Made by a program: the position numbers and the translations under genes. Of a stretch of 43,597 nucleotides of DNA, positions 10,423-28,810 are shown in pieces. The notes below the pieces were generated by a model. That model had not been told where the DNA came from, ran no database searches, and worked only from the letters and a program-made list of their open reading frames with translations. Origin of the DNA: Proteromonas lacertae (taxonomy: Eukaryota); the NCBI GenBank assembly GCA_002245135.1, contig NGBS01000054.1, positions 1 to 43,597 on the forward strand, in the 5' to 3' direction. Position 1 is the stretch's first letter; every line of letters begins with the position of its first letter.

Positions 10423-10679
10423 ATTCTCTTATGCTTTTATTCACTTTTCTTATCATCTTTATGTAAATATATAACAAAAATAACGAAATTCGATTTTTAT
10501 CAAAATTTTGAATAACCCAAAAATTAAAATGTGATTTAAATCACATGCAGAAGGTGTGATAAAAACAATAATACTCAATTCTGATTCATTAATGCATATT
10601 GCATATGATATGATGATATAAATGCTAATTAATATTTGTTGAAGAAAAGTGAAAATTTAACTTGTAATGCAATATATAT

Positions 10680-10947
10680 AGTATATAAATGGGACTCTGG
10701 CACATTATGCCAGAGTCCTAACGAGTTTTCTAGGGGTCCGTCCCTTTCTAGATTCAGAGTTGACTTTTACGGGAGCTTCATCGATTGCATCGATGAAGCT
10801 CCCGTAAAGGTCAACTCTGAATCTAGAAGGGGACGGACTCCTAGAACACTCGTTAGAACTCTGGCATATTGTACCATAGTCCCATTTACGTAAGGTTCCT
10901 ACGGGATTCCTCCCAACAGGGTCTACTTCTCAACGGGGTCTACTTCC
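10680..10947 (+). repeat. Left TIR of element A, containing a 203-bp imperfect palindrome (10686-10888)
   Basis: Reverse complement of 18385-18651 and near-identical to 19672-19939. Palindrome centre ATCGAT-TGC-ATCGAT at 10787. Confidence 0.97.
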
Positions 10948-10986
10948 TAACAGGGTCTTCTTCCCTACGGGGTCTACTTCCTACGG
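10917..10986 (+). repeat. Four degenerate tandem copies of an approximately 17-bp GGGTCTACTTC-containing unit
   Basis: cagggtctacttctcaa / cggggtctacttcctaa / cagggtcttcttcccta / cggggtctacttcctacgg. The other three termini carry two copies. Confidence 0.85.
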
Positions 10987-11086
10987 TGATTCATTGTCCG
11001 GCATTAAGGGTAATTTCCTTGGCCTTATTGTAGTTTTCATTTTCCTAGCGATCTTGACTTCAACAACTCAACACTCTTTTGATCTC

Positions 11087-13270
11087 ATGAAGCGTAAGCA
11101 ATCCTCCTCATCGTCCGATGATGTTCCTAAGTGCAAGGGTAAGCATCATCGTCTACAGACAGACTCTGAGGTCTTTGTAAGCACTAAGGACAACATCACG
11201 ATCGATGGTATCTCATTGACTAAGCCTAAGAGAAGATCATCATCCACGTTGAAAGCAAAGCAACAGAAACCCAAGGTAGTTGAACTAGATGGAATACAAC
11301 AAGCGATCCGGGCTGCTTTAATGAAGAAGAGTCAGGAAGTACCAGCGATGGACCATAAGCAAGATATCAATACCATCAACAACCCTGAGAAGTCTTTACC
11401 TAGCTACCCTAAAGAGCATCACACCTTATTCCCATCTACATCATCATTCATTGCCCAGGAGAATATCTATTACAATACCTACTTGGATCAGTTAAGGAAG
11501 AAGTTCAAGGACCTTGGAACTTACTTGAAAGTCATCCTCAAGGAGTATATGCACTCAATGATCTTTCCCAATGAATGTTACGATGCTCTTGTCAAGATGA
11601 TAATAGAGGAGGAGGACTCCGAAGGAGTCTTCTTAAGGTACATTACTAGAGCAAGATCCATCGATAAGAACAACTACAATGAGATGGAGCAGGAGTACTT
11701 ACTTACCCGTCACTATCAACTCAAGATTATCTCCGAGAGAATGGATCTCTTCATTAACAGCACCTGTAAGCTCCAAGGAAGTGATCTTCTAAGACCAGCC
11801 TTAAGAAACATCCAAGAACGCCTTGAAGATATACAACACTTTGTCAAGGACTCCAAGATCAAGGAGGATAATACCAACTACTTCATCCTCACATCGCAGT
11901 TCATCGATAAGGTCATCACTTCCCTAAGACAACTTAGTAAAGCTGCTAATCACCTGGTTGTTGAACTAAAGGCTTATGAGAAGATGCTTCAACACGATCA
12001 TCCGATGCTCTTCAAGGACAAGACAATCTCCCTGGATGCATACCTTAAGGCAACTAACTACTTGATCAACTACACTGATGAAGTTATTCAGATCCTGGAC
12101 TCGGAGAAGCTGTATCTTCCTAAGAATCAAATGCTGAAGGTGTTTAAGAAGCTCTATCAATCTCATGAGCATTACGTCCTTAAGGATTCTGCTTACTTCC
12201 TTAAGTGCAAGAGTCAATCCTGGAGCTACGTGAAAGTAGAGAACCGACCTAATACAAGACCAGACTCCGAGAAGGTACTTGTCTTTGACGAGGACAACTT
12301 ACTTCATGCACCCACAGCTGTTACTTACACGCAAATGAAGTTAGTCAAGGAGATGATGGATCACGTATCTCAACGCTACGTAGACTTCAACAAGGAGATG
12401 ATCACCTGGTTGAAATATTACGGTATTGACTTTCAGGATCTTCCAGTTACTTCATTGAGTCTCAACTTTAAGGATTCCATGCAGAAGGAAGAAGGCATCA
12501 CTGGTAATGAGTCCATGGAGGAGGACAATGATGTTAGTAATATCGATGGTAAGCAGGAGGATTCATCTTCAGTAACAACTTCGATCCCGAGTAAGGAACT
12601 TATAAATCCACAACCTCAACAATCTCATGACCGTCTCGACATCTTTAGCAGTGACAACGATACCGATAATGAAGATAATGATAAGGCCGGTAAGGAAGTT
12701 AAATTAACTCCAGTCAATGTCAATGAAGAGAACGTTCCTAAGCTAGTTGATGAATTGCTAGAGCAACCACCTCCACTACCTCCTAAGCCTGTAATCACCA
12801 AGACTGCTGATAAACCTACAATTACAAAGAAGAAGAAGAAGACTCCTAAGCAATCTACTGCTAGTAATCTTCCAAAGCATTCATCAGCAAGATCAAAGTC
12901 CCGATCTAAGGAACCATCAAAGGAACCATCAAAGGAACCATCAATAGAGCCTTCAAAGGAGCCTTCAAAGGAGCCTTCAACAATACCAGTAATCACCAGC
13001 GATGATCTTGAGAAACAATCAGCAGCTTCCTATCTTGTTGAGAATAACCATGAGGATGTCAAGGGCTCTGATGATGATGATGATGATGATGAACTTAACT
13101 TAGCTTCCACGGGACCAAAGTTACCTTCAATGATAAGTCCAGCTCCACAAGAGACTAACTCCTTGGAAGGCACCGAGATAAACAATACCTCGCAGTACAC
13201 CAGTTGTTTACCAGACTTAGAAGAAGAACCGTATATGAACTCACCTATACCTGACTTAAATATGTTTTAA
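11087..13270 (+). CDS. Element A large hypothetical protein (basic N-terminus, helical core, disordered C-terminus with KEPS repeats)
   Basis: ORF 10994-13270, first ATG at 11087 (MKRKQ, NLS-like). No recognisable catalytic motif. Confidence 0.8.
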   Translation: MKRKQSSSSSDDVPKCKGKHHRLQTDSEVFVSTKDNITIDGISLTKPKRRSSSTLKAKQQKPKVVELDGIQQAIRAALMKKSQEVPAMDHKQDINTINNPEKSLPSYPKEHHTLFPSTSSFIAQENIYYNTYLDQLRKKFKDLGTYLKVILKEYMHSMIFPNECYDALVKMIIEEEDSEGVFLRYITRARSIDKNNYNEMEQEYLLTRHYQLKIISERMDLFINSTCKLQGSDLLRPALRNIQERLEDIQHFVKDSKIKEDNTNYFILTSQFIDKVITSLRQLSKAANHLVVELKAYEKMLQHDHPMLFKDKTISLDAYLKATNYLINYTDEVIQILDSEKLYLPKNQMLKVFKKLYQSHEHYVLKDSAYFLKCKSQSWSYVKVENRPNTRPDSEKVLVFDEDNLLHAPTAVTYTQMKLVKEMMDHVSQRYVDFNKEMITWLKYYGIDFQDLPVTSLSLNFKDSMQKEEGITGNESMEEDNDVSNIDGKQEDSSSVTTSIPSKELINPQPQQSHDRLDIFSSDNDTDNEDNDKAGKEVKLTPVNVNEENVPKLVDELLEQPPPLPPKPVITKTADKPTITKKKKKTPKQSTASNLPKHSSARSKSRSKEPSKEPSKEPSIEPSKEPSKEPSTIPVITSDDLEKQSAASYLVENNHEDVKGSDDDDDDDELNLASTGPKLPSMISPAPQETNSLEGTEINNTSQYTSCLPDLEEEPYMNSPIPDLNMF

Positions 13271-13479
13271 CTTAAGGTTACTCTTGTTATTGAATATCAT
13301 TCTTGTTATTGTGGGGTTGCACTGATACTGCTACATAAATCTTATCGGAACATCGTCTATTGATGATAGCCATCACACGATCGCCTATCGGCTGTTGAAT
13401 GATGGTTATCATCAGTCAGTGTTATCCTTGCTTGTGAATCTCCCGATAGAACAACTAACTACGATAACATTAAAAGGAC

Positions 13480-13785
13480 TTACTTTAAGTTTCTTATATA
13501 CACCTTGCAGATCCTTCTGAGTCTAGCAGCTTCATTGACTTTGCCTTTACCTTTACGGGATGTTTTCTTCCTGTTGATCACGTTCTTGATCCAGTCCTTG
13601 ACCTTCCATAAGCTACTTCTTCCTCCGATAGTTAGCAGCTCTAAGTCATCCTCAGAAGTAGAGCTTAAGCTTCTTGCACGATAACCATTCCTTCCTTCAG
13701 GCATCTCCAAGGAGTCCTTGAATTTACCTAGTACTTGTTGCTTGCGCTTCTGTAACTGGTCGTACTCATAATTGATCGGAGCCAT
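13480..13785 (-). CDS. Small basic protein with a GG site followed by an amphipathic Trp helix; candidate virion core protein
   Basis: ATG at 13785. TIGG-RSSLWKVKDWIKNVINRKKTSRKGKGK resembles RRGGSLKSIWGKIKSG in the element C protein at 41747. Confidence 0.5.
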   Translation of the reverse strand: MAPINYEYDQLQKRKQQVLGKFKDSLEMPEGRNGYRARSLSSTSEDDLELLTIGGRSSLWKVKDWIKNVINRKKTSRKGKGKVNEAARLRRICKVYIRNLK

Positions 13786-13900
13786 TGTAGCGTAGATATT
13801 CCTGGGCAATGAGTAAGCTGGCAATCTCCTTTGATACCTTTACATTGAATTTCTTTTGTTTATCCCAACAATTGCAATTAGGAATCAACTCAATAGCTTA

Positions 13901-14566
13901 CTAATCATCCTCATCTAACATACCCAGCTTCATGCACTTTACCGTGATATCCTTCACATCATCTATTCCCAAGGAGATGTTTATTGTGTTGTACTTATCT
14001 AGGTTCATCTTATCGGTAAAGTCAAAGGTCCATTGCCTTATGAAGATGCGGACGATTCTCTCTCCGGGATGTGCAAGACCGTAAATCTTCCTACGATCAG
14101 TCATGGGATTGTACTTCACTAGGAAGCAATTGTCCTTAAAGAGATATTCACCTGATCCTCTAAGCACTTCCTCAGCTTCATGATCATCATCTCCGATAAT
14201 CCTGAAGAGTCTCTTGAGTACCTCCCGATTACGATCCACGATCTTGAGTTTAGCGTAACATTGATGATACATTGGAAGGGTGATCTTCTTATCGTCTGGG
14301 TCAGGGATGAACTTAGCGATGCAATCTATGATCACTGGTTTCTCGGGAGTGATGGTAAGTCTTCGATAGCTATGTCCTTGCTGATGATACTCTGAGTAGA
14401 TGCTAGCCTGACCGTATAGTTCTGATTCCTTTACAGTTGCCTCGTAAGTATAGATTCTCATTACCATCTTTGAAAGCCCTTTCATCATGAACTCATCCTT
14501 ACGATCATCTTCATACTTCTCGGTGATCTCCTTGATTAGATTGAAGTAGCTTCTGTTCTTATTCAT
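13901..14566 (-). CDS. Hypothetical protein, 221 aa, tandem paralogue 1
   Basis: Aligns with 14677-15342: YFNLIKEITEKYE/YFNLIRQVTENYD, IIGDDDHEAEEVLRG/VIGDNKHNAEDVLRG, WTFDF/WTFNF, GIDDVKDIT/GINDVEDIT. Confidence 0.85.
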   Translation of the reverse strand: MNKNRSYFNLIKEITEKYEDDRKDEFMMKGLSKMVMRIYTYEATVKESELYGQASIYSEYHQQGHSYRRLTITPEKPVIIDCIAKFIPDPDDKKITLPMYHQCYAKLKIVDRNREVLKRLFRIIGDDDHEAEEVLRGSGEYLFKDNCFLVKYNPMTDRRKIYGLAHPGERIVRIFIRQWTFDFTDKMNLDKYNTINISLGIDDVKDITVKCMKLGMLDEDD

Positions 14567-14676
14567 CGATCAAGTATAGGAATAAGTTTATTGAACTGAA
14601 TCAACCCCGAGATTACCATCCCTCTGAGAACTATCACTCCTGGAGGATTGAATTCCATGATGGATGGATGAGATCA

Positions 14677-15342
14677 TTACTTGGTATTTCCTTTGAACTC
14701 CTTCCTTGCAGCTATGCATCTATCAGTGATGTCCTCCACATCGTTGATACCAACAACGACTTCTAAGGTGTGGTACTTGGAGTAGTCCTTTGAGTCAATA
14801 AAGTTAAAGGTCCATCTAGGGAGTCTTAAACGAAAGATCCTCTTACCAAGACTTGCTAGGTGTTGGAACTTACTAATTGTTTTAGCAGCCCGTAGCTGAC
14901 ATTGCAACTGTACATAATCAGTTCCTCGGGAATTGCTTACTATTATCGTTCCTCTTAGAACATCCTCAGCATTGTGTTTGTTATCTCCGATCACATCGAA
15001 GAGCTTCCTTAAGGTCTGATGATTGTGATCATGGATCTTCAGATAAATCCTATTGTCACCTAAGTCCCGAACAACACTTCCAACACAGTCCACAATCACG
15101 GGGATCACCGGAGTGATGGTTACCTTCCTTGGTCTTGGAATGCCTATATCCATAAAGCTTTTTATCATAGCATCCCCGTAAGTGTCAGAGTCTTCTACTC
15201 GTATCTTATAAGTGAAGAGCTTCTCAATCTTCTCCTGTCTGGTTGTCTTCTTCGGGAAGGTCAATTCCTCCTTACGTTCCTGATCGTAGTTCTCGGTGAC
15301 TTGACGGATCAGGTTGAAATAGTTCTCATTCATTGACTTCAT
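14677..15342 (-). CDS. Hypothetical protein, 221 aa, tandem paralogue 2
   Basis: Paralogue of 13901-14566, same motifs and length. Confidence 0.85.
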   Translation of the reverse strand: MKSMNENYFNLIRQVTENYDQERKEELTFPKKTTRQEKIEKLFTYKIRVEDSDTYGDAMIKSFMDIGIPRPRKVTITPVIPVIVDCVGSVVRDLGDNRIYLKIHDHNHQTLRKLFDVIGDNKHNAEDVLRGTIIVSNSRGTDYVQLQCQLRAAKTISKFQHLASLGKRIFRLRLPRWTFNFIDSKDYSKYHTLEVVVGINDVEDITDRCIAARKEFKGNTK

Positions 15343-15459
15343 CGGATGAGAATTATCGGACTGCCCTCAACTTACTTTGTTAATTAAGTCTTGACGTTTC
15401 CCAGAATTGACTTTTTTTTTTACTCACTCCTGGTAATCACGCAATTCCCGGTCATCTCC

Positions 15460-16275
15460 ATGAAGATAAGGATTCCTCCGAAGAATGAACTTAGAGCAAA
15501 TGCAAAGTCCCATCAACACGATAAGCTAGCCCAGAAAGTAATAGCAACCCTTGGAATTCTTAAGCCTAGACAATCACTTACTTTAGTTCACCAGGAAGTG
15601 TTATCTCAAGAGTCTTCATCGCCATTATCAATTCGTTGTGGTTCAGATACTGGTTCAGATACTCCTTCAAGAACATCATCGTCTCTGACTTTACCGAGTG
15701 ATGATAAGGACTCCATCGTTTATCAAGAATGTTACCTCGAAGTTCCCTTTACAGCAGTACCAAAGGCTTTCATCAATCTAAGCATAGATGGGAATGTAAA
15801 GGGTTTTGTTTGTTGTGGCAGCTCCTTCTACATTGCTTTATTAGCTTCACTTCATCGTGAGGAGATCAAAGGTATTCACAAGAAAAACCTTGTAAGATTC
15901 CTATGGTTCAAAGCGTTCTCGTACTACCTACGGCTAAGTGAATGCATCTCCAATCCCTTACTATGCGATAAGTCGATTACCAAGATAGAGGAGGACAATC
16001 ATCTATCCATTAACGTATTCAAGATGCTTCAGAAGCCAGATCTTCACTTAGTCCCTTTACGTACTTCGAAGACACCTTCCAATGATTCCTATAAGCAGGT
16101 GAGCTTGCTTTACCTGGAAGAGAATTGTAAGCCTTCAACATCTCCTAGTACGGATACTCACAATGATGAATCTCTTAGAGGCTCTACAATCATCCATTTC
16201 CATTACGTTACCATCGTTGATCCGTCTATGAGCTTATCAACCCAAGACAAGAGAAGTAATAGAATCACCATGTAA
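15460..16275 (+). CDS. Hypothetical protein, probable member of the gene family shared by A, B and C
   Basis: ATG at 15460. YLEVPF...NLSIDGNVKGF...SFYIALL resembles FVSVPY...QVQLRGTIHQI...NFIIQLL of 27000-27329. Confidence 0.65.
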   Translation: MKIRIPPKNELRANAKSHQHDKLAQKVIATLGILKPRQSLTLVHQEVLSQESSSPLSIRCGSDTGSDTPSRTSSSLTLPSDDKDSIVYQECYLEVPFTAVPKAFINLSIDGNVKGFVCCGSSFYIALLASLHREEIKGIHKKNLVRFLWFKAFSYYLRLSECISNPLLCDKSITKIEEDNHLSINVFKMLQKPDLHLVPLRTSKTPSNDSYKQVSLLYLEENCKPSTSPSTDTHNDESLRGSTIIHFHYVTIVDPSMSLSTQDKRSNRITM

Positions 16276-16276
16276 G

Positions 16277-17023
16277 TTAGAAGAAGAAGTCTGGCCTTTG
16301 ACGTCTATTGATCATGCGTGTGATAATCCTACTCCATTGATCTATCAACTCCGACAACTCGTTAAGGATCTTGCTTATTGAATCTAGTCTTTGTTGGGTG
16401 TAGTCAACGATATAGATATACCTTGTAGCTACCTTAGTGCTGGTTACCGTAGTGACTTCATTGTCTTGTTCACTACTAGGCCTTGAAGGTTGTTGGCATC
16501 TCCTTAATTCCTCTTGAGATAGTCTACTCCTTCCTACGTGTTCCTCCAATTCCTTCTCACGACCACGTCTCCTTACCGAGAAGATTGCAAGGTAATTGAT
16601 CTCCTTATGAAGCTGCTGATCCATCTTCTTGAAATCAACCTTACCAAGGATCGGTAAGTTGCTAGTTACCTCCTCATCGTCGAAGTCTTCTAGGTATTGA
16701 CTCATCATGGACTTATCGATATAAGCAAGTTCCTCAGCGATGGCACTTAGGACATAGTACAATTGACTTAGCTGAATCTTGTTAGTCTTCACCTTTCCTA
16801 GAACTTCAAATGATCTCCTTGTCTTCTCAGTTGAGAACATCCCATCACAGTTATTGAACTCTCCGAGGACACCTCCCTTATCTAACAATGAACGGATCAT
16901 CGCTATAGCTCTTCTTATCAACTGAGAGTACTGCCTCTCACAACCCTGGTGCTTGAGATAATCCTTTACCCTCTGGTTCCTTTGCAGCAACCTCTTATCG
17001 GTAGTGTTCTTGAAGTATTGCAT
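16277..17023 (-). CDS. Hypothetical helical protein, 248 aa
   Basis: ATG-initiated ORF, tail-to-tail with the 16275 stop (1-bp gap). Confidence 0.75.
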   Translation of the reverse strand: MQYFKNTTDKRLLQRNQRVKDYLKHQGCERQYSQLIRRAIAMIRSLLDKGGVLGEFNNCDGMFSTEKTRRSFEVLGKVKTNKIQLSQLYYVLSAIAEELAYIDKSMMSQYLEDFDDEEVTSNLPILGKVDFKKMDQQLHKEINYLAIFSVRRRGREKELEEHVGRSRLSQEELRRCQQPSRPSSEQDNEVTTVTSTKVATRYIYIVDYTQQRLDSISKILNELSELIDQWSRIITRMINRRQRPDFFF

Positions 17024-17344
17024 TCACGGGAGGTGTTCAGAAATTGCTTACTGCCGAGATAGTTGAACTTTTCCGATGCCTCCTTCTATAGATCACTATG
17101 TGTCCGGCATTAAGAACATTTACTTACTATCCTTCTACGTAGTGCTAGTATCAATGGTCCTTGCCTTTATCGATATGAAGCTTCAGAGAATACAACACCA
17201 GGTAAGATTATTTCTTCATGATGACCTTGATGGATTCAACAATCGTTTCTTAAGATTTTACCCAGCTGATCTCCTGCTCCTTGTAGGTAACAATGTAGTT
17301 CCCGTGAATGAGGTTTTCGACGATGACTTCCTAGATGATGAAAC

Positions 17345-17641
17345 TTACTTACAATGGAGGATGCATTGGCCTTTAAGATAACTAGATCTCCCGCTTATCG
17401 TTGTGGTTGATGGTACCTTTGCTTTGTTGGGATGATCGAAAAACATCATCTTATCGGGGATAGGTACAATGGATAAGCACCTAGCCTGGTTCTGAACAAT
17501 GTGAAGGTTCAGTAACAGATTACCCAGTGATTGGTAAAGAGCTAAAGGCTTCTTCCGTAAAGTACCATTCATGATCATGATGGAGTGGTAGGGTAGTTTG
17601 GAACTGACTGCTTGCTGATCCTTAAGGATGTTATCCTCCAT
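17345..17641 (-). CDS. Possible small hypothetical protein, 98 aa
   Basis: ATG-initiated ORF only. It overlaps the end of an opposite-strand ORF (17076-17381). Confidence 0.3.
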   Translation of the reverse strand: MEDNILKDQQAVSSKLPYHSIMIMNGTLRKKPLALYQSLGNLLLNLHIVQNQARCLSIVPIPDKMMFFDHPNKAKVPSTTTISGRSSYLKGQCILHCK

Positions 17642-17911
17642 ACTCTTCAGAATTGAATTAGTTTACCTAGACAATTAACAAGGACGATGAGACTTACCTT
17701 CAGAAGACTGTTGAGATTGCTGCTATCTCTTTTCAAGGTCCTTGAGAATTATAGAAATGATTGAAGCCTCCCGAAGTCACCATTGTATACTTGTTAACAA
17801 TTGTAAAGTCCCAGTTCTTCATTGAGTTGTTCATTGAGTTCCAAGATTGCCCTGTTGATTACCCTAGCTTTTCAATGGCCTTGTAAATTGACTGATTAAT
17901 AGAAGAACCAT

Positions 17912-18019
17912 CAAGACCTTCCCAGATACGTCCAGCCGTGCATGACTGCGTCAGGGAATCTCCCATGAAGGGAGATTCCCTTCCTTGCCAACACGGCTGT
18001 TCTTCTCGGGAAGGTCTTG
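17912..18019. other. Nested three-stem hairpin in a non-coding region; candidate structured RNA or cis element
   Basis: CAAGACCTTCCC/GGGAAGGTCTTG, CAGCCGTG/CACGGCTG and AGGGAATCTCCC/GGGAGATTCCCT around an ATGAA loop. Confidence 0.75.
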
Positions 18020-18074
18020 GATGAACTTACCTAGGAGAGTTATAAGGATGATAAAACATACCTTCAGAAGCCTT

Positions 18075-18651
18075 CCGAGATTGCTAATCATTATCTTCAA
18101 GGGCCCTTGAGAAATCCACAACTAGCTAGAACCTCCCGGAGTTACCATTTGGTAACTTGTTAACAATTGTTAACTTGTTACCAATTGTAAACTCCCGGTT
18201 CCACGATTGGTTTCCACGGTTCAATTAAAAGCCCTTACAAGGTCACCAGCGTAGCAAGGAGAGTCAAGAGCATGATTAGAATCATCACCTCGAGGTAACC
18301 AACACTTCTAGATAGTTTACAGGAGTACCCGTAGGAGATCGTCTCATAGATAGGTATAGAAATAGCATAGAGGAGTTCCCGTAGGGAAGTAGACCCCGTT
18401 GAGAAGTAGACCCTGTTGGGAGGAATCCCGTAGGAACCTTACGTAAATGGGACTATGGTACATTATGCCAGAGTTCTAACGAGTGTTCTAGGAGTCCGTC
18501 CCCTTCTAGATTCAGAGTTGACCTTTACGGGAGCTTCATCGATGCAATCGATGAAGCTCCCGTAAAAGTCAACTCTGAATCTAGAAAGGGACGGACCCTA
18601 GAAAACTCGTTAGGACTCTGGCATAATGTGCCAGAGTCCCATTTATATACT
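18075..18651 (-). repeat. Right end of A: TIR (18385-18651) plus an extended common region, inverted copy of 19672-20249
   Basis: About 577 bp near-identical to the left end of B in reverse complement. Hairpin at 18444-18645. Confidence 0.97.
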
Positions 18652-18797
18652 ATATATGCAATTAGTGTGAATATACAAGTTATTTTTAAATTTTTTTATA
18701 TCACTACTTTTAGTATATTAATTATTTCAAATATAACATGTATAATCAGACAAAATCATCACTCTTCAACAAGCAATTACAACATAATATACATAAA

Positions 18798-19555: not shown

Positions 19556-19671
19556 ATACTATTGAAACAATAGGTTATATATTATTATTTATACTTCTAT
19601 GTTAATAACAGTATTATTGATTCATAATTATAATATTACAATAAATTGTATATCTTAGTTAAAAAGTATAT

Positions 19672-20689: not shown

Positions 20690-21076
20690 ATGGAGGAGTA
20701 CTTCAAAGAGATCACAGGCATGACTGATGAGGAAGCTTCCGTGATCAACAACCAGGAGGAAATAATGAAGGCTGTGAAGATAAAGTCCATCGCTGATTAC
20801 CTATTGAAGTCCTTGACCTTACAAGTACAATTCAAGGAGTCAGAGGATCGCAGCAAGACTCCATTCCCGATACTACCTTACAACTACGAGGTATTCTTAA
20901 CTAAACGCAACCAAGGAAAAGCACTCAGCAAGAGGATGAAACTCAAGATGGAAGCAACTGTTCATGACAACTTACCAAGAGAAGACAACTCCCTTGATAG
21001 TAAACCCTCGGAAGAAGCAACAACCCAACAAGACAACTTATCAGAAGCAGAAGATGACTTTAACGCGGCCTTCTAA
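20690..21076 (+). CDS. Hypothetical protein; may have an upstream part at 20461-20586
   Basis: ATG ORF whose stop abuts the stop of 21077-21646. Weak resemblance to 33734-34372 (YFKEITGMTDE vs LYNYISGMKSE). Confidence 0.6.
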   Translation: MEEYFKEITGMTDEEASVINNQEEIMKAVKIKSIADYLLKSLTLQVQFKESEDRSKTPFPILPYNYEVFLTKRNQGKALSKRMKLKMEATVHDNLPREDNSLDSKPSEEATTQQDNLSEAEDDFNAAF

Positions 21077-21646
21077 TTAACAGTACTCCAGGACATAGAA
21101 GCAAGGATGAACTAACACCTTAAGTAATGTTTTCTCTTGGCTCTGTTGGACTGTTTGCTTAAAACACTTCATAAGACTGACAGAGGATAACAGGCACTTG
21201 AAGTAATGATAGGAACAGTCCTTAGAAGTCTCTTGCTCTATGTCCTCCATAGGTTGATCAGGGCTGGTAAGTAGCTCCATCATGTTGAAGTCAAGGGAAT
21301 CGTAGGAGAGTACCTGATGATCATACTCAATAACCTCAAGTAGATCCAAGGACATTGTAAGCACATCCTTCAAGGAGTTGATAAAGGACTGATGAAACAT
21401 CCCTGGCCATTGCACCGGCCTTACATTATTCAACTCAACCTTGATAAAGCCATCGGAAGATGATCGATCGAAGGAGTAAACACTCCCGTAAACAACAAAG
21501 CTAAAGTTCATACTCAAGGTGTTCATGGTCTTCTCCTCCATACTGTTGATGAACTTACAAGGATAGCTATCTCGGAGAAGTATAGCAAGGTGATCATCGT
21601 CAGGTAAAGGACTAGAGGAATTGTCGGGAGATTGATTGCAGCTCAT
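21077..21646 (-). CDS. Hypothetical protein, probable member of the shared family
   Basis: SFINSLK and VLVHPCFYV parallel MFIKSLR and VRIFPHYEI in 27401-28327. Confidence 0.7.
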   Translation of the reverse strand: MSCNQSPDNSSSPLPDDDHLAILLRDSYPCKFINSMEEKTMNTLSMNFSFVVYGSVYSFDRSSSDGFIKVELNNVRPVQWPGMFHQSFINSLKDVLTMSLDLLEVIEYDHQVLSYDSLDFNMMELLTSPDQPMEDIEQETSKDCSYHYFKCLLSSVSLMKCFKQTVQQSQEKTLLKVLVHPCFYVLEYC

Positions 21647-21717
21647 TACAATGCACGATGAAAATCAAGGACTATGAGAAGCTCAATAAATAATTTCCCA
21701 AGATAAAACATAAGGAC

Positions 21718-22161
21718 ATGGACACCAAAGTTATAAGCAATATTGTAATCCCTTCAGCTCACTTGCAACCCAAAGAAGAAGAAGACAAGACCGAGGATAA
21801 CCAAGAAGGAGATATCCAAGAAGTCGAAGACCAAGGAACTGCACCTACTTCAACACCATTGACTGAGTCACAATCAAGTGAGTTATTCATGGAAGTCAAG
21901 ACTGAAGAAGTCAAGACTGCAGAAGTCAAGACTGAAGAAGTTAAACAACCAGAGTTAGAAAGAGACCGAAGTAGTCATCACTTACACGATGAACAAGACC
22001 TAGATGCTGAGCTTATTGAAGACATGACTGACGAAGAGATTACTAACTTAAGAAAACACCTTGAGGAACTTATCGAGGTAGAGAAGGAGTCTAAAGATGA
22101 AGACAAGGATGAGGATGAGGATGATAACAACGAGATCCAGGAAGTAAAAGACTCTGAGTAA
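21718..22161 (+). CDS. Acidic low-complexity protein with EVKTE repeats
   Basis: ATG ORF of 147 aa. A similarly acidic ORF occurs in C (40270-40743). Confidence 0.75.
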   Translation: MDTKVISNIVIPSAHLQPKEEEDKTEDNQEGDIQEVEDQGTAPTSTPLTESQSSELFMEVKTEEVKTAEVKTEEVKQPELERDRSSHHLHDEQDLDAELIEDMTDEEITNLRKHLEELIEVEKESKDEDKDEDEDDNNEIQEVKDSE

Positions 22162-22251
22162 AGTAATCATAAGGAGGTACTCATAAGGAGGAACTTATAA
22201 GGAGCAACTCGCAAGGAGGTACTTACAATATCTCTTTTCTCAGGAGTAATC

Positions 22252-22824
22252 ATGAACAAGTTCAAGAGATTCAACTTAGCTGATAGACGAAGAGTACTTT
22301 TCAAAGGCAATGGAGTAGACAAGGATGATTACAATGACCTTCATGAAGCTTACTTACAATCACTAGCAAGAGAACGTCAAGGAGCTATCTCCCGAAGAAG
22401 GAATCGAAGGATAGATGAACTCCGAGGAATGCTCAGAGACTACAACACGGAACATCCGATGATGGGTAAGGATGCAGAACTCCAAGGAGCTTACAATGTA
22501 GCTAGTGACTATCTTACTGCCTTGGAGAACAATGAGTTGATGAGTCAAAGGATGGCAAAATCGTTGATCCCCAAGAAGACTAAGAGCAAGAACAAGAGAG
22601 TTGCTTACAAGACAGACTCCATCGTAGATGCGATATCAACTCCTGGCTTCCTTGTAGTTCCTACAATCATGAAGAGCATTGAAGCTGACCGTGAAGTAAG
22701 TGACTCCTCCGAGGATCTCGACCCTTTAACAATGATGATGATGATGATGAAACAAGGAGCCAGAGGAAGCTCCGATGATGGTGATGAGAATACAATGGCC
22801 TTACTAAGTCAACTACTTACTACT

Positions 22825-22855
<31 letters not shown>

Positions 22856-23151
22856 AAACAAAGAAACCTACCTCTGAGGATATCAAGAAGGTAATGGACT
22901 CACTCAAGACTGAATACTCCGATACAGTCTTCAATGAACTAGCCAACTCCATCCATCCTACTCCTATTACCGAGAATAAGTATGAGAATGATAGTAAGTA
23001 CGGAGTCTCTGATGAAACAAAGGAATCCGATGGGCTTGGAATGTTAACTAAGGAACTGGAGCAGACAATTGAAGATATCAATAACAACAAGACCGTAATT
23101 GACCTTCCTGAAGAAGAAGAGTCTGATGAATCAACTTCTGAGGAGGAGTAG
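22252..23151 (+). CDS. Hypothetical protein, N-terminus related to the frameshifted C gene at 42929-43496
   Basis: YNDLHEAYLQSLARE...RNRRIDEL vs YQNLYQNYLTSTAKD...RDEQIEQI. Confidence 0.8.
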
Positions 23152-23196
23152 ACAGAATATCATCAGTAATTCATTTCCCTTAAGTATAGTCTTGTT

Positions 23197-23391
23197 ATGA
23201 CTAAGAAACTCAACAAGAAGCAAAAGGCAAAGCTCAAGGAGCTGATCATCAAGAGATTGAATCAATGTAAAGCAACTCCTAGCAGTCACTACTCTGACCT
23301 TTACAAGAAGTACTACCAGGCAATCACTGATCATTACAAGGATGTCGATATCAATGTCCATGGCAATGAAATAGACTCCTCCGATCTCTAG
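23197..23391 (+). CDS. Small basic protein, possibly the N-terminal part of 23418-24440
   Basis: Lys-rich start plus HYSDLYKKYYQ, echoing the start of the C gene at 42929. Confidence 0.5.
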   Translation: MTKKLNKKQKAKLKELIIKRLNQCKATPSSHYSDLYKKYYQAITDHYKDVDINVHGNEIDSSDL

Positions 23392-23417
23392 TAATCCATT
23401 TCTCTCTAGTAAAGGCG

Positions 23418-24440
23418 ATGAGAAGCAAGGCAAGTAGCAAGAGTCCCAAGAAGGTAAAGACAAGTGATGATCCTCTGGTGATCATCAAGAAGCAATTGTT
23501 GGAGGAGTTCAATAAGAAGGTTGAAGGTATCACCGATGTTAAGAAGCTCTCAGCAATGACCGTGAAGATGATGGAGAACAACACCAAGGTAATGGAAGGT
23601 AACAATCAGCAGATAGTATCGATGAACTTAACTCCCAGCAATATACAATCAGGTACTATGGTAAACAACTCCCCAGCAAGAGAACTTTACAAGGCCAACA
23701 TGATTAACCAGTACGGTAAAGCCAACTACTATAACTACCGAGACTTTGCTGGTAACATCAACACTCCAGCTTCAAGGAACCTCTCAGCACTCTATCCCAA
23801 TCAATCAACTTACTATCGCAATCCATCGGTAAGTCTTCCTAGCTTACAACAGCAGGCTAAACAAAATCAATGGATGAGCAATCCCCATCTAGTCTATCAA
23901 CAGAACACTGCCCAGATCAACAACGTTCTTAGCAACTTACAATCAATGATCGAGAAGTACAAGTACGCAGCTCCTGATCAGAAACCATTGATCAGGACAA
24001 GCATAATCAGCTTCATCGAGAACTTAAGGAACGCTACCAACACCGGAGCTACGAACAGTGATGTTACCAGAGCAGTCTTCAATTATATCAACAACCCAGA
24101 AATCAAAGGCCTCTTGAACTTCTCCGATGAGATGATCAAGACTTCCTTTGGACCGACAATGTACCAGAGCTTCATGGACGTCACCAACAACACGATTGGA
24201 GCAGTCGGAACCACTGCAGACTTCGGAAGGAACTTACTTAACCTCAGAGATGCTTACAATAAAGGAACCTTATGGAGCAACCCACAACAAGTGATTGGAA
24301 ATGCTGCTGGGTTAGTTCAGAACCTTGGTAACTTCGGAACATCCCTGGACAATGGCTTTCAAGCAGTCAAGAGACTCTTTGGATATGGTAAGGTAGGAAG
24401 AAGAATCCCCTTATGGAAGCTTTACCGAAGGCGTAAGTAA
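23418..24440 (+). CDS. Putative virion core or minor protein with a C-terminal amphipathic helix, LFGYG site and basic tail
   Basis: Directly upstream of the minor capsid gene. Ends GFQAVKRLFGYGKVGRRIPLWKLYRRRK. KKLSAM...QQIVS...REL...NYYNY matches the C protein. Confidence 0.7.
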   Translation: MRSKASSKSPKKVKTSDDPLVIIKKQLLEEFNKKVEGITDVKKLSAMTVKMMENNTKVMEGNNQQIVSMNLTPSNIQSGTMVNNSPARELYKANMINQYGKANYYNYRDFAGNINTPASRNLSALYPNQSTYYRNPSVSLPSLQQQAKQNQWMSNPHLVYQQNTAQINNVLSNLQSMIEKYKYAAPDQKPLIRTSIISFIENLRNATNTGATNSDVTRAVFNYINNPEIKGLLNFSDEMIKTSFGPTMYQSFMDVTNNTIGAVGTTADFGRNLLNLRDAYNKGTLWSNPQQVIGNAAGLVQNLGNFGTSLDNGFQAVKRLFGYGKVGRRIPLWKLYRRRK

Positions 24441-24494
24441 GAGACTTATGGTAAATCGTTATTCAGTCTTTTCTCTAAGATCATTTACTCGGAC

Positions 24495-25457
24495 ATGTCC
24501 AACCAAACAAGAACGATCAGCATTAGCTCAGCTAGAAGAATTGCCCAGAAGAATAAGTACGAATTGATCATTGCTATCCCCACCGATGTAAGGAAGGACA
24601 ACTACAAGTACATTGCCTTGAAGTATGCTAGCATCCCCAACTCCTTCTATGTTGTCCAAGAAGGAGTCAATGACCAGATGACCTATGTCTTCCAGATCGC
24701 TATCCGTACTGTAGGAGATAAGTATGAACACGTAGAGTTCAACTACAACATGACAATCCCTCAAGGAGACTATAGTGGTGATGAGCTCCTTGCAATGTTC
24801 AACAGTCCCTTTGAGAAACTCACTCAAGGAGAAGTTATCAAAGTGATAAAGACCGTCCATCCAGAGTTAGAAGCAAGTAGTACCGGAAGCAACCTCCTTA
24901 TGTTTGATCCATCAACAGCCTTTGGTAAGAAGAAGTGCACGTCCTCTGATCCTCATCATATCCACACAACTAATTTAACCTTTACAGGAGCTAGTAATGT
25001 CATCGGCCTTAAAGCAAACAACATCGCTGGTAATGAGTATACAGGAGCCTTCATCTGCTCTATCAAGTTAAAGTCTCCAGGGATTGCTTATCGATTCCTC
25101 GGGATGGGAGATACTCAATATGTCCTAGCTGATCATCAACACACTTCATCCAGTCTATTGACTTACAAGTATCCAGAAGTAACATTGCCTGGAGAGCCTA
25201 CGATCATCTGGGTAGACTCTGTAAGCATCAGGATGGACATGGTGAACCAAGATCAAGACTCCAAGATCCTAGAAACTTTCCCTATCGTGGATTTTACCCA
25301 GCCTTACATTGCCTTCAACAACAACGATCTCATCTCCCGAGCAAAGCAATTAGGTAACTACACGGAAGGTCAAGTAATCGTTAGCATTACCCAACAAGAT
25401 GGCTTCCAGCTAGACCTCAAGATGCATGACTACAACTTCGAGGTAGCCTTATTCTAA
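24495..25457 (+). CDS. Minor capsid protein (penton, single jelly-roll), PLV/virophage type
   Basis: ASIPNSFYVVQEGVND and IPQGDYSGDELL are typical of PLV pentons. Immediately upstream of the MCP. Homologous to 34482-35471 (PTIIWVDSVSIRMDMVNQDQDS). Confidence 0.8.
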   Translation: MSNQTRTISISSARRIAQKNKYELIIAIPTDVRKDNYKYIALKYASIPNSFYVVQEGVNDQMTYVFQIAIRTVGDKYEHVEFNYNMTIPQGDYSGDELLAMFNSPFEKLTQGEVIKVIKTVHPELEASSTGSNLLMFDPSTAFGKKKCTSSDPHHIHTTNLTFTGASNVIGLKANNIAGNEYTGAFICSIKLKSPGIAYRFLGMGDTQYVLADHQHTSSSLLTYKYPEVTLPGEPTIIWVDSVSIRMDMVNQDQDSKILETFPIVDFTQPYIAFNNNDLISRAKQLGNYTEGQVIVSITQQDGFQLDLKMHDYNFEVALF

Positions 25458-25508
25458 GTTCCTTTCCATTGAATCATTTCCTTTGTGTATTCTAAGGAGT
25501 TATTAGCA

Positions 25509-26879
25509 ATGTCAACTCAAGTGATCATCCCCGAGGAGCAACAACATGCTCCTATCATCCCAATCATGAATCCACTCTACCAGACGATAAAGCTTACTCC
25601 TACTCAATCTTATCCTAAGGTCGACTGCCCAGAGCAAGGCATGACTCCTGAGATCACCTTTGAACTCCCTGGTAATTACTGCAGCAACTTAAGCAAGAGT
25701 TACATCCAGTTCTACGTTGACTATTACGGTAACAATGGAAAAACTATGGAACCTGATATTAAGAATGCTGATAAGTCAGGGGATTGGAAGTTCTTTTACG
25801 ATACTTACGTGTTATCCAACTCTTATAACTTAACCGAGATCAAGGTCTACAACTCCAATGGAGTTCAGTTACTGTATGCAGATCATCAGTATGAGTTGTT
25901 CCGACAAATGATGGTTCAAGTGGCAAGGAAGAACATTGATAAGTATAATCAGAAGGTTTACTTTGATGGTTGCTATGCTGAGGAAAGCAAAGACACTGAG
26001 GACTATGAAGTCATGGAGTTTAAAGTAGAAGAATTAAAGGACGGGCATTACCGACGTCTAGTAAAGATCTTCCTTGGAGAGCTCTTCAATACAATACTTA
26101 GTTCAGCAACAGATGTCTTCTTCTCGGAGAAGCTATTCATCACTTTGAGATTCGGTAAGGCTGATGGTTTCTACAACCCTAAGGAAAGTAAGAGTACTAA
26201 GTTCAATGAGATGAAGGATAGCACAGCTAAGGATATGACCGATCCAGTAAAAGCAAAGATGATAGAACCCAAGGTAAAAGTTAGCCTAGACAACTTCTAC
26301 TTCTACGTGAAGGTTAACAAGGATCCAGCCTGTAATGACAACACGATCAAGTATTGCCTTAACAAGACAATTGACTTCAATGACTTCCATTGCTTTACTG
26401 TCACTAGCAGCTCCGGCATGGACTTCTTTCGATATACCTTTACCTTGAATAGTAGTCTCGGTAAGTACATCAAGTTCATTGCCTATCGTCCTTATGATGG
26501 GAACGACAAGATCCAGAAGCTAGATAAGCAAAGTACTAAGTTCAGATGGCTTATCAATGACTTCCAATACAACCCAGACTTTGTTAACCTCAAGGACTAT
26601 GATAACTACCACATGATAAAGCCTTTGCTAGCCTGTAGCTGGCACGATCAGTACAACTACGTTCAGGAGGAAGATAAGTTCATCGAGGTACTCAACTTTA
26701 GTAACTTTGGCTTATTCGATCTCCAAAATAGACAAGGCAAGAGAATGGATCAAGATATTAAGTTTACCTTTGAGATGTACTCCGACACCCTCAAGACCGA
26801 GAACATCTTCCATCGCTTCTACGTGGTCACTGGCCGAGGAGCTACTGTCAATGAAAGTGGTATCGTGAACATCATCTAA
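25509..26879 (+). CDS. Major capsid protein (double jelly-roll), PLV type
   Basis: About 456 aa, beta-rich. ITFELPGNYCSNLSKSYIQF is a PLV-MCP-like N-terminal motif. Full-length homology to 35508-36935, which sits beside a packaging ATPase. Confidence 0.82.
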   Translation: MSTQVIIPEEQQHAPIIPIMNPLYQTIKLTPTQSYPKVDCPEQGMTPEITFELPGNYCSNLSKSYIQFYVDYYGNNGKTMEPDIKNADKSGDWKFFYDTYVLSNSYNLTEIKVYNSNGVQLLYADHQYELFRQMMVQVARKNIDKYNQKVYFDGCYAEESKDTEDYEVMEFKVEELKDGHYRRLVKIFLGELFNTILSSATDVFFSEKLFITLRFGKADGFYNPKESKSTKFNEMKDSTAKDMTDPVKAKMIEPKVKVSLDNFYFYVKVNKDPACNDNTIKYCLNKTIDFNDFHCFTVTSSSGMDFFRYTFTLNSSLGKYIKFIAYRPYDGNDKIQKLDKQSTKFRWLINDFQYNPDFVNLKDYDNYHMIKPLLACSWHDQYNYVQEEDKFIEVLNFSNFGLFDLQNRQGKRMDQDIKFTFEMYSDTLKTENIFHRFYVVTGRGATVNESGIVNII

Positions 26880-27329
26880 AGGACGATGATCGGAGAGATC
26901 ACCTCATACTTGGGATAGATGATATCGATGGAAGGAGTTCTCTTGATTGTGAGCTGATGGTTCTTTACCCACAAGACAACTTCCTTATAAGTGCAGTCCT
27001 TATCTATCCCGTGTAGATCTTGGTGACTTGCTTACAACAACATAGACTTGCTTAACGTTATCGGGAGAGGCTGGTAAAGCAACATTGTACTTTGCCTGAA
27101 TCTTGCATTGCTTCTCGGCAATCATTAGCATCTGGTTCTTCAACTCCTCGGAGATGTTCCTCCAGCACTTGAGCTCTCCATTGTTGAATCGTAGGAAGGT
27201 AACATTCAGGAGCTGGATGATGAAGTTCTTGTCAGTCTCAATGATCTGGTGAATCGTTCCTCGGAGTTGTACTTGCCATTGAAGTGCATAAGGAACACTT
27301 ACAAAGATGTTATTATCGGTGCTATCCAT
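26876..27329 (-). CDS. Shared-family protein interrupted near 27000-27035 by a +1 frameshift or a 37-nt intron
   Basis: The N-part matches 38675-39418 (DNNIFVSVP/DKENVYVSLP). The shifted frame continues DCTYKEVVLWVK...IIYPKYEVISPIIVL*, matching YIYPKFEL. Its stop overlaps the MCP stop. Confidence 0.65.
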
Positions 27330-27400
27330 AGACGATTGAACCCAATATCAAAAGTTAATGATAATCAGTAAAGCCTTAAGAAGAAGTTAAGTACTAGGAA

Positions 27401-27467
27401 TTAAGCCGATGTTGAAGTCATTGAAATAGCTGCTGGTTGCTCAGGGTTCTGAGGAGTCTCTTGAGGC

Positions 27468-27501
<34 letters not shown>

Positions 27502-28327
27502 GAACTCCTTGAGGTGCAACTACTTGAGTAGGAGTAGGAGTAGGAATAACTACTTGAGGAATCATCCCTTGAGGGAACTGAGGTTGTGGAGGCTGATAAG
27601 CATTCATGGAGATGTCCTTGATCTCGTAATGAGGAAAGATACGTACAGGTTGAATAAAGTTACCTCCTGTTGTAGTTCCATCGCTAGACACTTCCTTACC
27701 GGGATAGATAACTGCATCCTTGATCACTAGCAAGAACATGAAGACTTTACCGACGTTACTATAGATGTTCTGCTTAAAGGCCAAGAGCTTCTTGTTGCTT
27801 CTCTTCCAGAGAGTTGCATTGAGAGTACCTGATCGAGGAGTTGAAACATAGGTGGTGTTGGTGATCTGAAGATGCTTAGGGAAGGTTGGATCTTGTTGAG
27901 TTGCCATAGCCACGTTGTATCGTAAGCTCTTGATAAACATCTCGGTGTTGTTGGAGTCAATGAAGAAGGACATCACCCTGGTAACATTCAACTGGAGGTA
28001 GTAGTTGGTATCATACTCGGAGATCTTTTCAACCATGGCTTCAACATAGAAGTGTACTTGATCTTGCTTAAGGAAGTAGTGCCAGTACTTACCACAGATA
28101 CGGAGCTGGGGCTTCTCAGGTTGTAATTGTCGTTGTTGCTGGGCAGCTCCGGGAAATGCAAAGGAATTTGAAGGAGCCGATGGAGACATCATCATCACTG
28201 GCTGGGATATCACGGGTTGATTCATCATTGGTAAGACTGAAGCTGGATTGAAAGAAGGAGCTGTCATAGGAGCAGGCATTGCTGGGTAAGGAACTTGTTG
28301 CATAGCTGGTTGATTGAAAGAGTTCAT
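27401..28327 (-). CDS. Shared-family protein with Gln/Pro-rich termini
   Basis: Core TNYYLQLNVTRV and VRIFPHYEI vs TNYHLLSFNRIKV and FYIYPKFEL in 38675-39418. PolyQ tract. Confidence 0.8.
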
Positions 28328-28533
28328 AGGAAACGATAAAGTAGTGAAAGATAAGATCGACCAAGAAATATATGACTGAAGTGAACCTAAGAAGGAACCT
28401 GAGAAGAAACCTTCAAAGGGATCGTAGAACCATCCTAGTCTTTACAATTGGTTTCCACGGTTCTGTAGATGAACTTTTCTTTGAAAGAGTTCTTCTCGTA
28501 GAATACTCCTTGAAGATCATCCTGTAAGAGATC

Positions 28534-28810
28534 TTCCCGTAGGGAAAGTAGACCCCGTTGAGAAGTAGACCCTGTTAGGAGGAATCCCGTAGGAACCTTA
28601 CGTAAATGGGACTATGGTACATTATGCCAGAGTTCTAACGAGTGTTCTAGGAGTCCGTCCCCTTCTAGATTCAGAGTTGACCTTTACGGGAGCTTCATCG
28701 ATGCAATCGATGAAGCTCCCGTAAAAGTCAACTCTGAATCTAGAAAGGGACGGACCCTAGAAAACTCGTTAGGACTCTGGCATAATGTGCCAGAGTCCCA
28801 TTTATATACT
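28534..28810 (-). repeat. Right TIR of B (hairpin 28603-28804)
   Basis: Reverse complement of 19672-19948. Confidence 0.97.

Follow-up and report, generated by a model that had tools for sequence, protein, structure and literature searches.

Two integrated DNAs with the same hairpin termini and different genes in Proteromonas lacertae: candidate segments of a multipartite Polinton-like virus

Two elements integrated near each other in a contig of Proteromonas lacertae have near-identical hairpin ends and unrelated interiors, and may be segments of a multipartite Polinton-like virus (PLV) in which an enzyme segment elsewhere would hold polymerase, integrase and packaging ATPase, a reading to which we give about an even chance. 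Within the 43,597-nt window (the whole stretch of DNA that was analysed), element A (7,982 bp; 10674–18655) contains orphan genes only and element B (9,149 bp; 19668–28816) contains a structural module without an ATPase. Polintons, PLVs and virophages, as described, each consist of one molecule on which capsid, ATPase and replication genes occur together.

Two separate integrations

Both elements are islands of high GC content (0.414 in A and 0.421 in B, compared with 0.23–0.25 in host DNA). Each has its own target-site duplication (TSD): ATGCAAT for A (10667–10673 and 18656–18662) and AAAAAGT for B (19661–19667 and 28817–28823), with a length of 5–7 bp that varies with the cut point of the (AT)n tail. 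The two 7-mers occur in host DNA at frequencies of about 1 × 10−4 and 7 × 10−5 per position, respectively, and cross pairings between A and B yield AT-dinucleotide matches only. With a separate TSD at each element, A and B represent genuine integration events and not a mis-join. The sequence-only reading of this DNA had raised as an alternative that the assembly was mis-joined across the repeats, and the TSD pairing answers it. Four near-identical repeats inside 18 kb could favour such an error, and one strand-dependent G-run (the left ends each have 4 G and the right ends 3) suggests consensus errors; however, the two TSD pairs tie host flank, spacer and host flank into one pre-insertion locus, and the spacer (18663–19660, minus strand; GC 0.23) carries an ordinary intron-containing, coiled-coil-like host gene. 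At most, interiors could be swapped or inverted, and we regard a mis-join as the origin of the layout as very improbable. The measured lengths match the earlier estimates of about 8.0 and 9.1 kb; the elements had been located correctly, with true ends that lie 4–6 nt further out.

Termini and subterminal regions

A core beginning AGTATATAAATGGG is present at all four ends (10680 and 19672, and as reverse complement at 18651 and 28810). About 270 bp are common to the four ends, and the first ~268 nt differ at 1–3 positions, which bears out, with the GC values, the common ends and similar composition noted earlier. The terminal inverted repeats (TIRs) are ~268 bp long in A and ~278 bp in B. Each end contains an imperfect palindrome of 202–203 nt (10686–10888, 18444–18645, 19678–19880 and 28603–28804) with a folding energy of −105 to −108 kcal/mol (z of about −25; 0 of 200 shuffles as good), and 17-bp tandem repeats come after the hairpin. 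The four hairpins have the same orientation, each with an external tail, which argues against flip-flop hairpin-telomere replication.

Further inward the ends diverge in structure. The left end of A (10674–10990, plus strand) comprises an (AT)3 tail, the terminal motif, a 203-nt hairpin and 17-bp repeats with two extra units. The right end of A (18027–18655, minus strand) is long, with a subterminal block beyond its TIR that is shared with the left end of B (19668–20297, plus strand), where an (AT)2 tail, the hairpin and repeats precede the same type of block. These two long ends are identical over 554 columns save one G-run position, with decay until ~640, and the match is twice the reach of either element's own TIR pair. 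Inside A lies an older, ~75% identical copy of the long block's inner part (17646–17807, minus strand; score 129–144 compared with a shuffle maximum of 39.5). At the right end of B (28430–28816, minus strand; TIR 28534–28816), degenerate repeats after the hairpin reach position 384, and outside a 17-nt motif (28447–28463) the subterminal region aligned with the long ends no better than chance (48.5 compared with a shuffle maximum of 51.5). Exact copies of this motif occur at A-right, B-left and B-right only (3 matches, 0.08 expected). Because it has this diverged subterminal region of its own, B-right looks, as far as its sequence goes, like an old end rather than a fresh break. The pattern of the A and B ends was not found in three sequence collections.

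Past the subterminal region the interiors are unrelated, as had been stated before: a blastn comparison of A with B recovered the termini, the 631-bp subterminal block of A-right and B-left and its degenerate part-copy inside A, and nothing else, and no protein or DNA was found in common between the two bodies.

Gene content

The largest gene of A is an inward-pointing orphan ORF of 727 aa (11087–13270, plus strand; no informative match) with ~370–395 ordered residues and an acidic, proline-rich tail. It is followed by a basic orphan of 101 aa (13480–13785, minus strand); two tandem paralogues of 221 aa each that are 38% identical (13901–15342, minus strand; copies at 13901–14566 and 14677–15342), for which no homologues were found and the structure model is of low confidence (pLDDT 52); and orphans of 271 aa (15460–16275, plus strand) and 248 aa (16277–17023, minus strand). 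No viral hallmark gene was detected in A, and no double-jelly-roll (DJR) capsid was found there.

B begins with five small or acidic orphan ORFs (20690–23391; 20690+, 21077−, 21718+, 22252+ and 23197+), followed by a 340-aa ORF with a basic C terminus (23418–24440, plus strand) that is possibly a core protein (core-protein profile E = 0.26, not significant). The next ORF (320 aa; 24495–25457, plus strand) is likely to encode the penton, a minor capsid protein of the single-jelly-roll family; it matches a profile of 25 relatives (E = 2.4 × 10−10), is 29–30% identical to two penton pieces in a neighbouring element, C (see below), and takes its name from the position before the major capsid protein (MCP) in relatives. 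The 456-aa ORF downstream (25509–26879, plus strand) is predicted from its structure model to encode a DJR MCP (AlphaFold2 pLDDT 79, pTM 0.80), with Foldseek matches to PBCV-1 Vp54 (E = 2.8 × 10−11), mavirus (6.6 × 10−10) and Sputnik (8.2 × 10−10) and a value of 0.97 against the ESM Atlas. It is 35% identical to the MCP of C, and these two form, with 8 Logan proteins, a long-branched MCP group of their own (quick tree, SH-aLRT 100). Of the capsid pair proposed for B from sequence, the MCP is thus backed by AlphaFold and Foldseek, and the penton is rated as likely. Two inward-pointing orphan ORFs on the minus strand (27000–27329, 109 aa; 27401–28327, 308 aa) occupy the place at which relatives have the ATPase (27000–28327).

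The bodies of both elements are ~89% ORF, at either end of each the outermost long ORF is directed inward and no ORF is visibly cut. Codon usage correlates strongly between A and B (RSCU r = 0.81) compared with A or B against the host or C (r = 0.41–0.57).

Dependence on enzymes in trans

What A and B lack is precisely the set of enzyme genes. An ATPase profile that matches C with E = 8 × 10−130 gives E values of at least 0.27 for the best ORF of A or B, phmmer searches for the ATPase were negative in both, and there is no Walker A motif in their ORFs of at least 90 aa; tblastn with 120 ATPases returned 0 lines in B, 1 raw line at E ≤ 0.01 in A and 132 in C. Among relatives, the MCP that best matches the B and C profile (E = 9 × 10−59) belongs to L024, a 16-kb contig on which a protein-primed polymerase (pPolB), retroviral-type (rve) integrase, helicase, MCP and ATPase occur together, and of 8 relatives that have 2.5 kb of sequence on both sides, 7 have the MCP at most 1.1 kb from the ATPase. 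Pfam detects the pPolB of L024 and has no pPolB match in 53 six-frame ORFs of at least 60 aa from A and B; PolB motifs (patterns from general knowledge) are also absent from both, and their longest ordered stretch is ~395 aa. There was no sequence match to an integrase or tyrosine recombinase and no significant match to a cysteine maturation protease (Pfam and the proteases of two relatives) in either element, searches in which single sequences have low sensitivity for this lineage. Helicases had no Pfam match in A or B, and A also has no Walker A motif. The sequence-only reading had likewise recognized none of these functions. Sensitivity is limited in that phmmer with the L024 MCP misses the MCP of B, and searches of A could therefore overlook an integrase or protease that is very divergent. 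On these searches, which detected none of the five (pPolB, integrase, ATPase, protease and helicase), A and B would both depend on enzymes supplied in trans.

A third, AT-rich relative, overlooked in the sequence-only reading, starts 2.4 kb from B and runs off the window (element C; 31256–43597, plus strand; GC 0.26). Its terminal motif resembles that of A and B, with ~25 nt of end motif in common, and it contains a 641-bp palindrome (32894–33534), a penton gene interrupted by a stop (34872–34874), adjacent genes for MCP (35508–36935) and A32 ATPase (37024–37830) and two arginine-rich core-like genes. Its penton, MCP and ATPase genes are carried together by a molecule that measures at least 12.3 kb. 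With C so close to B, the region may be an insertion hotspot, and the co-location of A and B counts for less as evidence. C is a poor helper candidate for A and B because of its different composition, 35% MCP identity, common end motif of only ~25 nt and broken penton.

Segments, arms or satellites

In its fuller form, which we hold to be about as probable as not, the multipartite reading posits three or more linear segments of 8–9 kb (structural, accessory and enzymatic) that would share hairpin termini, be replicated and integrated singly by enzymes in trans and stay in the protist genome as dispersed proviral segments. A protein-primed polymerase supplied in trans would start at the open ends, where the predicted fold of the 3′ end, a stem of 100 bp that leaves 12 AT-rich nt unpaired as a tail, could be a plausible initiation site. 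An rve integrase, also in trans, would read the shared terminal ~25 nt and insert molecules singly with 5–7 bp duplications; rve is described as typically yielding 6-bp TSDs (PMC12220804). B would provide capsid and penton, a third segment the ATPase, and A would be the accessory segment; recombination between co-replicating segments would keep the shared ends uniform.

The two molecules have the common termini and non-redundant genes of a multipartite layout. Segments are supported by separate TSDs and unrelated bodies that nevertheless match in GC and codon usage; by similar sizes (8.0 and 9.1 kb), high ORF content, inward outer ORFs and no cut gene; by the old-looking B-right end and the internal subterminal copy in A; and by the absence of the ATPase, although it lies beside the MCP in relatives and in C. 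Against segments, no third one is seen in the window, C has penton, MCP and ATPase on one molecule, integrated PLVs without a detectable integrase have been reported (PMC11296320), and the identity of A-right and B-left beyond the elements' own TIRs is the pattern predicted by two arms of one genome. Bidnavirus segments share less with each other than each shares with itself. The sequence-only reading did not weigh this 554-bp match, which also fits two arms.

A would then be the right arm and B the left arm of a longer monopartite Polinton-like genome (~25 kb, TIR ~640 bp), each truncated, provided again with a short TIR by copy-back and integrated by an intact parent in trans. This accounts for a match whose decay resembles that at the inner boundary of paired TIRs and for short TIRs that stop within the 17-bp repeats in both elements; relatives are monopartite, and truncated EMALEs with regenerated TIRs exist (3 of 33 EMALEs reported are TIR-flanked truncated virophages; PMC8547959). 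However, it requires two non-overlapping truncations, clean at gene boundaries and losing only enzymes, and has to contend with the diverged repeats and end-specific 17-nt motif at B-right and with an ATPase that is absent also from its usual place within B; we consider it rather unlikely. Also compatible with old-looking ends is a long-standing satellite status under a complete helper with the same ends, B being capsid-bearing and A a transpoviron-like accessory DNA with captured helper termini. A lacks a viral hallmark gene, and transpovirons are ~7-kb linear DNAs with 380–520-nt TIRs that are carried in virophage particles (PMC7031253); but all transpovirons in that account encode a helicase, for which searches of A were negative. 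If the helper had a capsid of its own, B would also have less reason to keep an intact structural module, C is a poor candidate for that role, and we think satellites unlikely. Of the earlier proposal, segments of one virus or satellites mobilized in trans, the two independent integrations, common termini, capsid in B only, lack of detectable enzymes and, with it, movement in trans stand; among segments, arms and satellites, segments are the likeliest reading, at about even odds.

If A and B are segments, their divided genome would give the DJR viruses a new architecture and would be a possible double-stranded DNA counterpart of the segmented bidnaviruses, which took their polymerase and TIRs from Polintons. 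Surveys keyed to capsid or ATPase would miss entire segments such as A, and some 'incomplete' endogenous PLVs would be complete segments. Independent segment integration would raise a testable question, the re-assembly of a full set from scattered proviruses. Under the rival readings too, the capsid lineage is an uncharacterized one, its terminal hairpins of 100 bp are unusual and its non-autonomous partners are rich in genes.

Comparison with known systems

A and B have the TIRs and 5–7 bp TSDs, and B the DJR MCP after a penton-like gene, of Polintons/Mavericks and Gosseviruses (class Polintoviricetes; 10.64898/2026.06.19.733378), and the relatives resemble Gosseviruses in gene content, L024 through pPolB and rve and L001 through a cysteine-type protease. 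In the Polinton and Gossevirus genomes described there, morphogenesis and replication genes share one molecule of 15–30 kb, whereas A and B are 8–9 kb, B lacks the A32/FtsK ATPase and enzymes, including pPolB, and A lacks hallmarks. The Tetraselmis PLVs TsV-S2 are also integrated, with AT dinucleotide repeats at genome ends like the (AT)n tails here, but are monopartite, 18–19 kb long and have TIRs of 583–1,724 bp (10.1101/2025.10.09.676808).

The truncated Cafeteria EMALEs are similarly short, TIR-flanked, integrated derivatives of DJR viruses with short TSDs; they are reported as shortened copies of known full-length types (PMC8547959), whereas A and B have non-overlapping bodies, one set of ends and no cut gene. 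Transpovirons resemble A in that they are ~7-kb linear DNAs (A is 8.0 kb) that have TIRs, lack a capsid and rely on other viruses for propagation. They are described as episomes with a helicase core gene (PMC7031253) and are not known from that account to share ends with the capsid donor; A is chromosomal and has the ends of B.

Bidnaviruses and Drosophila Vesanto virus have linear segments with TIRs that are similar between segments, and Polinton-derived pPolB on only some of these segments, of which Vesanto has up to 12 (PMC4061559, PMC8363768). The analogy drawn with bidnaviruses in the sequence-only reading holds for architecture but not for ends or capsid: bidnaviruses and Vesanto are described as single-stranded DNA viruses with a parvovirus-type capsid and SF3 helicase, and bidnavirus TIRs as lacking hairpins (PMC4061559, PMC8363768). 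Placement of A and B in the Bidnaviridae, with the traits given in PMC4061559, is contradicted by the DJR capsid and hairpin ends. A and B combine a DJR capsid, 100-bp hairpin ends and integration of each molecule with its own TSD.

Two islands inserted separately

The host DNA in the window is AT-rich (~0.24 GC), with introns and ordinary genes such as one for an EMP70 protein, and its compact arrangement of genes suggests a protist. Within it lie two islands of 0.41–0.42 GC: element A (10674–18655; 7,982 bp) and the capsid-bearing element B (19668–28816; 9,149 bp). The 1,012-bp spacer between them contains an intron-containing host gene. ORFs make up ~89% of A and of B, with the outer genes pointing inward, and codon usage is alike in the two elements (RSCU r = 0.81) compared with 0.41–0.57 against the host or element C, a third, related element. 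The bodies of A and B have no DNA or protein in common.

A is flanked on both sides by ATGCAAT and B on both sides by AAAAAGT, giving target-site duplications (TSDs) whose length of 5, 6 or 7 bp varies with the cut point chosen in the AT tail. These 7-mers have a frequency of ~1 × 10−4 per host position, and the remaining two pairings of the ends yield matches of AT dinucleotides only. Each element thus has its own TSD pair and was inserted separately, in agreement with the independent integration proposed in the sequence-only reading. The same reading had raised a mis-join across the repeats as a possible source of the layout; this is unlikely, because such a join cannot create two TSD pairs. 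We rejected a 6-bp ATATAT duplication with the element ending at AGT, which would leave the outer 7-mer duplications unexplained, as well as a single composite insertion of A, spacer and B, the outer flanks of which have no TSD. The 18.1 kb from the left end of A to the right end of B, host gene included, are bounded by matching ends and might in principle move as one unit. Overall, three viral insertions occur in 21 kb, as would be seen at a hotspot for insertion or in a genome that carries a heavy load of such elements.

Structure of the shared ends

All four ends of A and B carry the same ~270 bp, with 1–3 differences. From the outside inward, they consist of a short (AT)n tail, AGTATA, an imperfect palindrome of 202–203 nt and 17-bp repeats. 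At the left end of B (B-left), 7 positions of the palindrome are unpaired or wobble. The predicted fold of the palindromes (z ~ −25) leaves a 12-nt tail unpaired at the 3′ end. Searches of viral contigs, metagenome contigs and prokaryote genomes for the end pattern gave no matches. We rejected flip-flop hairpin ends that are covalently closed, as in poxviruses or parvoviruses, because the hairpins lie in one orientation in 4 of 4 cases (a 1-in-8 chance taken alone) and have a tail of unrelated sequence on their outer side.

The four ends are not equivalent to one another. In one run of G residues, the two left ends have 4 and the two right ends 3, which is probably a consensus error. Except for this run, the right end of A (A-right) and B-left are identical over 554 columns, with identity falling to 84% and then 68% in the next windows; the terminal inverted repeat (TIR) pair of each element stops at ~268 in A and ~278 in B. 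An older copy of the inner part of the A-right/B-left block, about 75% identical, lies inside A (17646–17807). The right end of B runs on into degenerate repeats, and its subterminal DNA has no alignment above chance to the long ends apart from a 17-nt motif, which is confined to A-right, B-left and the right end of B (3 matches with at most 3 mismatches versus 0.08 expected).

More imperfect palindromes occur at 17911–18018 (in A, just inside the long subterminal block) and at 18135–18198 and 20126–20189 (within the block), and are possible protein-binding sites. Within the outer arm of the hairpin lies a mini-hairpin with a perfect 11-bp stem (10692–10718), the inner-arm counterpart of which is broken by mismatches; this suggests that the outer copy alone was retained as a putative recognition site.

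Gene content of A and B

On the strength of a profile search, a structural model and a fold match, the B gene at 25509–26879 encodes a double-jelly-roll major capsid protein (MCP). The model, built from an alignment of 15 sequences (pLDDT 79), matches the capsids of PBCV-1, mavirus and Sputnik (E = 3 × 10−11 to 8 × 10−10), and the full-library profile search yielded 23 proteins. As a lone query, this MCP scored none of 1,964 candidates, and scans of viral contigs gave no relative. The B gene at 24495 likely encodes a penton, as it belongs to the family encoded ahead of the MCP in relatives. The match of B 23418 to a core protein was not significant, and homology between B 27401 and C 38675 was unsupported (E = 24).

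For the proteins of A, Pfam, PHROGs, NCBIfam and PDB sequences returned a low-complexity repeat and nothing informative, a homolog search found 0 of 995 candidates, and viral contigs and the ESM Atlas were also uninformative. Two A proteins are tandem paralogs (38% identity). The model of the 221-aa pair is poor (pLDDT 52), has no clear fold match (best Z = 5.5, best E = 0.014) and speaks neither for novelty nor for the absence of a known fold. Rfam gave no matches across 10600–43597.

The earlier impression that neither element carries recognizable enzymes held up. All 53 six-frame ORFs of at least 60 aa listed for the two bodies lacked a Pfam enzyme match, and the pPolB, retroviral-type integrase (rve), helicases, proteases and ATPase of relatives gave nothing significant when compared with 255 six-frame segments from the two elements. 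In these searches the absence of the ATPase is firm, because the positive control, element C, was found at E = 8 × 10−130, as is that of pPolB, because no ORF has a sufficiently long ordered region. The absence of integrase and protease is softer, because a relative’s MCP likewise missed the B MCP in the same test.

A third element and its relatives

Element C extends from 31256 to the window end (43597), with its right end beyond the window, and has 0.26 GC and host-like codons. Its penton, MCP and Pox_A32-type ATPase genes are adjacent in that order, and its MCP is 35% identical to that of B; polymerase, integrase, helicase and protease were all undetected in the visible 12.3 kb. The first ~25 nt of C are similar to the A/B terminus (equal or better score at 2 of 51,754 background positions), and this sharing suggests that the motif is likely the signal recognized by the integrase of this lineage. 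C is inserted where homology to a SPRY-type host paralog ends (the He_PIG-containing gene at 8422–9333; regions 31030–31260 and 8290–8530), and has probably disrupted a host gene copy.

The penton gene of C is broken by a stop at 34872–34874, between two ORFs, which may reflect either true damage to the gene or an error in the consensus. A 641-bp palindrome (32894–33534; 299-bp arms, 95% complementary), 1.6 kb inside the left end, is bordered on each outer side by 15-bp tandem repeats and could be an origin or the end-to-end junction of two molecules. Two small Arg-rich genes (41183–42067) match small-protein families conserved in related Polinton-like viruses (PLVs; E = 1 × 10−6 to 1 × 10−12) and are, we presume, reminiscent of adenovirus-type core proteins.

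Close homologs of the C ATPase (48–89% identical, 16 clusters) come from Logan assemblies only. An MCP lies at most 2 kb from the ATPase in 43 of 82 fetched loci, and within 1.1 kb in 7 of the 8 loci with 2.5 kb on both sides; these loci were selected by ATPase, and capsid-only molecules are invisible in such a sample. The conserved MCP–ATPase module implies that B has lost or moved its ATPase. In a quick MCP tree (n = 33: B, C, 21 locus MCPs of at least 400 aa and 10 of the 23 profile hits, the other 13 being fragments or odd hits), a long branch (SH-aLRT 100) separates B, C and 8 Logan proteins from the rest, with the tree rooted only at its midpoint. Locus L024, which has the best MCP score against the B/C profile, carries pPolB, rve with a chromodomain, helicase, MCP and ATPase on 16 kb. 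Internal inverted repeats (5364–5789 and 10277–10701) bracket its capsid–ATPase module, hinting that the module may be invertible or separable. None of 16 contigs with close ATPase homologs exceeds 10.3 kb versus 16 of 104 distant ones above 12 kb, a non-significant difference (P = 0.085) that is confounded by short-read fragmentation.

A possible divided genome and its alternatives

A and B are real, non-autonomous elements with common ends. The multipartite virus proposed in the sequence-only reading is consistent with these ends, the separate TSDs, the capsid on B and the lack of detectable enzymes, but the divided genome itself is unproven. We nevertheless consider segments of a divided genome to be the single most likely reading, evenly poised between right and wrong, because the missing genes would fit about one further molecule of similar size, the bodies are intact and non-overlapping, and the ends look old. 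The long match between A-right and B-left is in keeping with two arms of one genome, as is the precedent of TIR-flanked truncated EMALEs (3 of 33 in an excerpt of PMC8547959); we regard this origin as unlikely. A and B would also fit as stable satellites of a full helper, which we consider slightly less probable still; integrated PLVs in which no integrase is detectable have been described (PMC11296320, in part).

An rve integrase acting in trans would insert A and B, given that TSDs are absent after insertion by tyrosine recombinases and are typically 6 bp long with rve enzymes (PMC12220804, in part). The single hairpin orientation and external tail suggest that protein-primed replication would start from open ends, with the hairpin and its free 3′ tail as a putative initiation site.

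Comparison with known systems

In the open-access papers searched on Polintons and PLVs, titles and abstract openings reveal no segmented double-jelly-roll virus, and supplementary element catalogues may contain some. The abstract and sections 5 and 7 of a 2026 PLV framework (10.64898/2026.06.19.733378) mention none, and such elements are not described in portions of a long-read genome paper (PMC12129017) or under the terms searched in 10.1101/2025.04.19.649669. A and B work like Polinton and PLV proviruses, although neither alone fits the family definition. AT-repeat ends as in A and B occur in Tetraselmis PLVs, according to an excerpt of 10.1101/2025.10.09.676808. In the excerpted accounts of bidnaviruses and Vesanto virus (PMC4061559, PMC8363768 and PMC11071296), the layout is similar to that of A and B, whereas the capsid fold, hairpins and integration differ.
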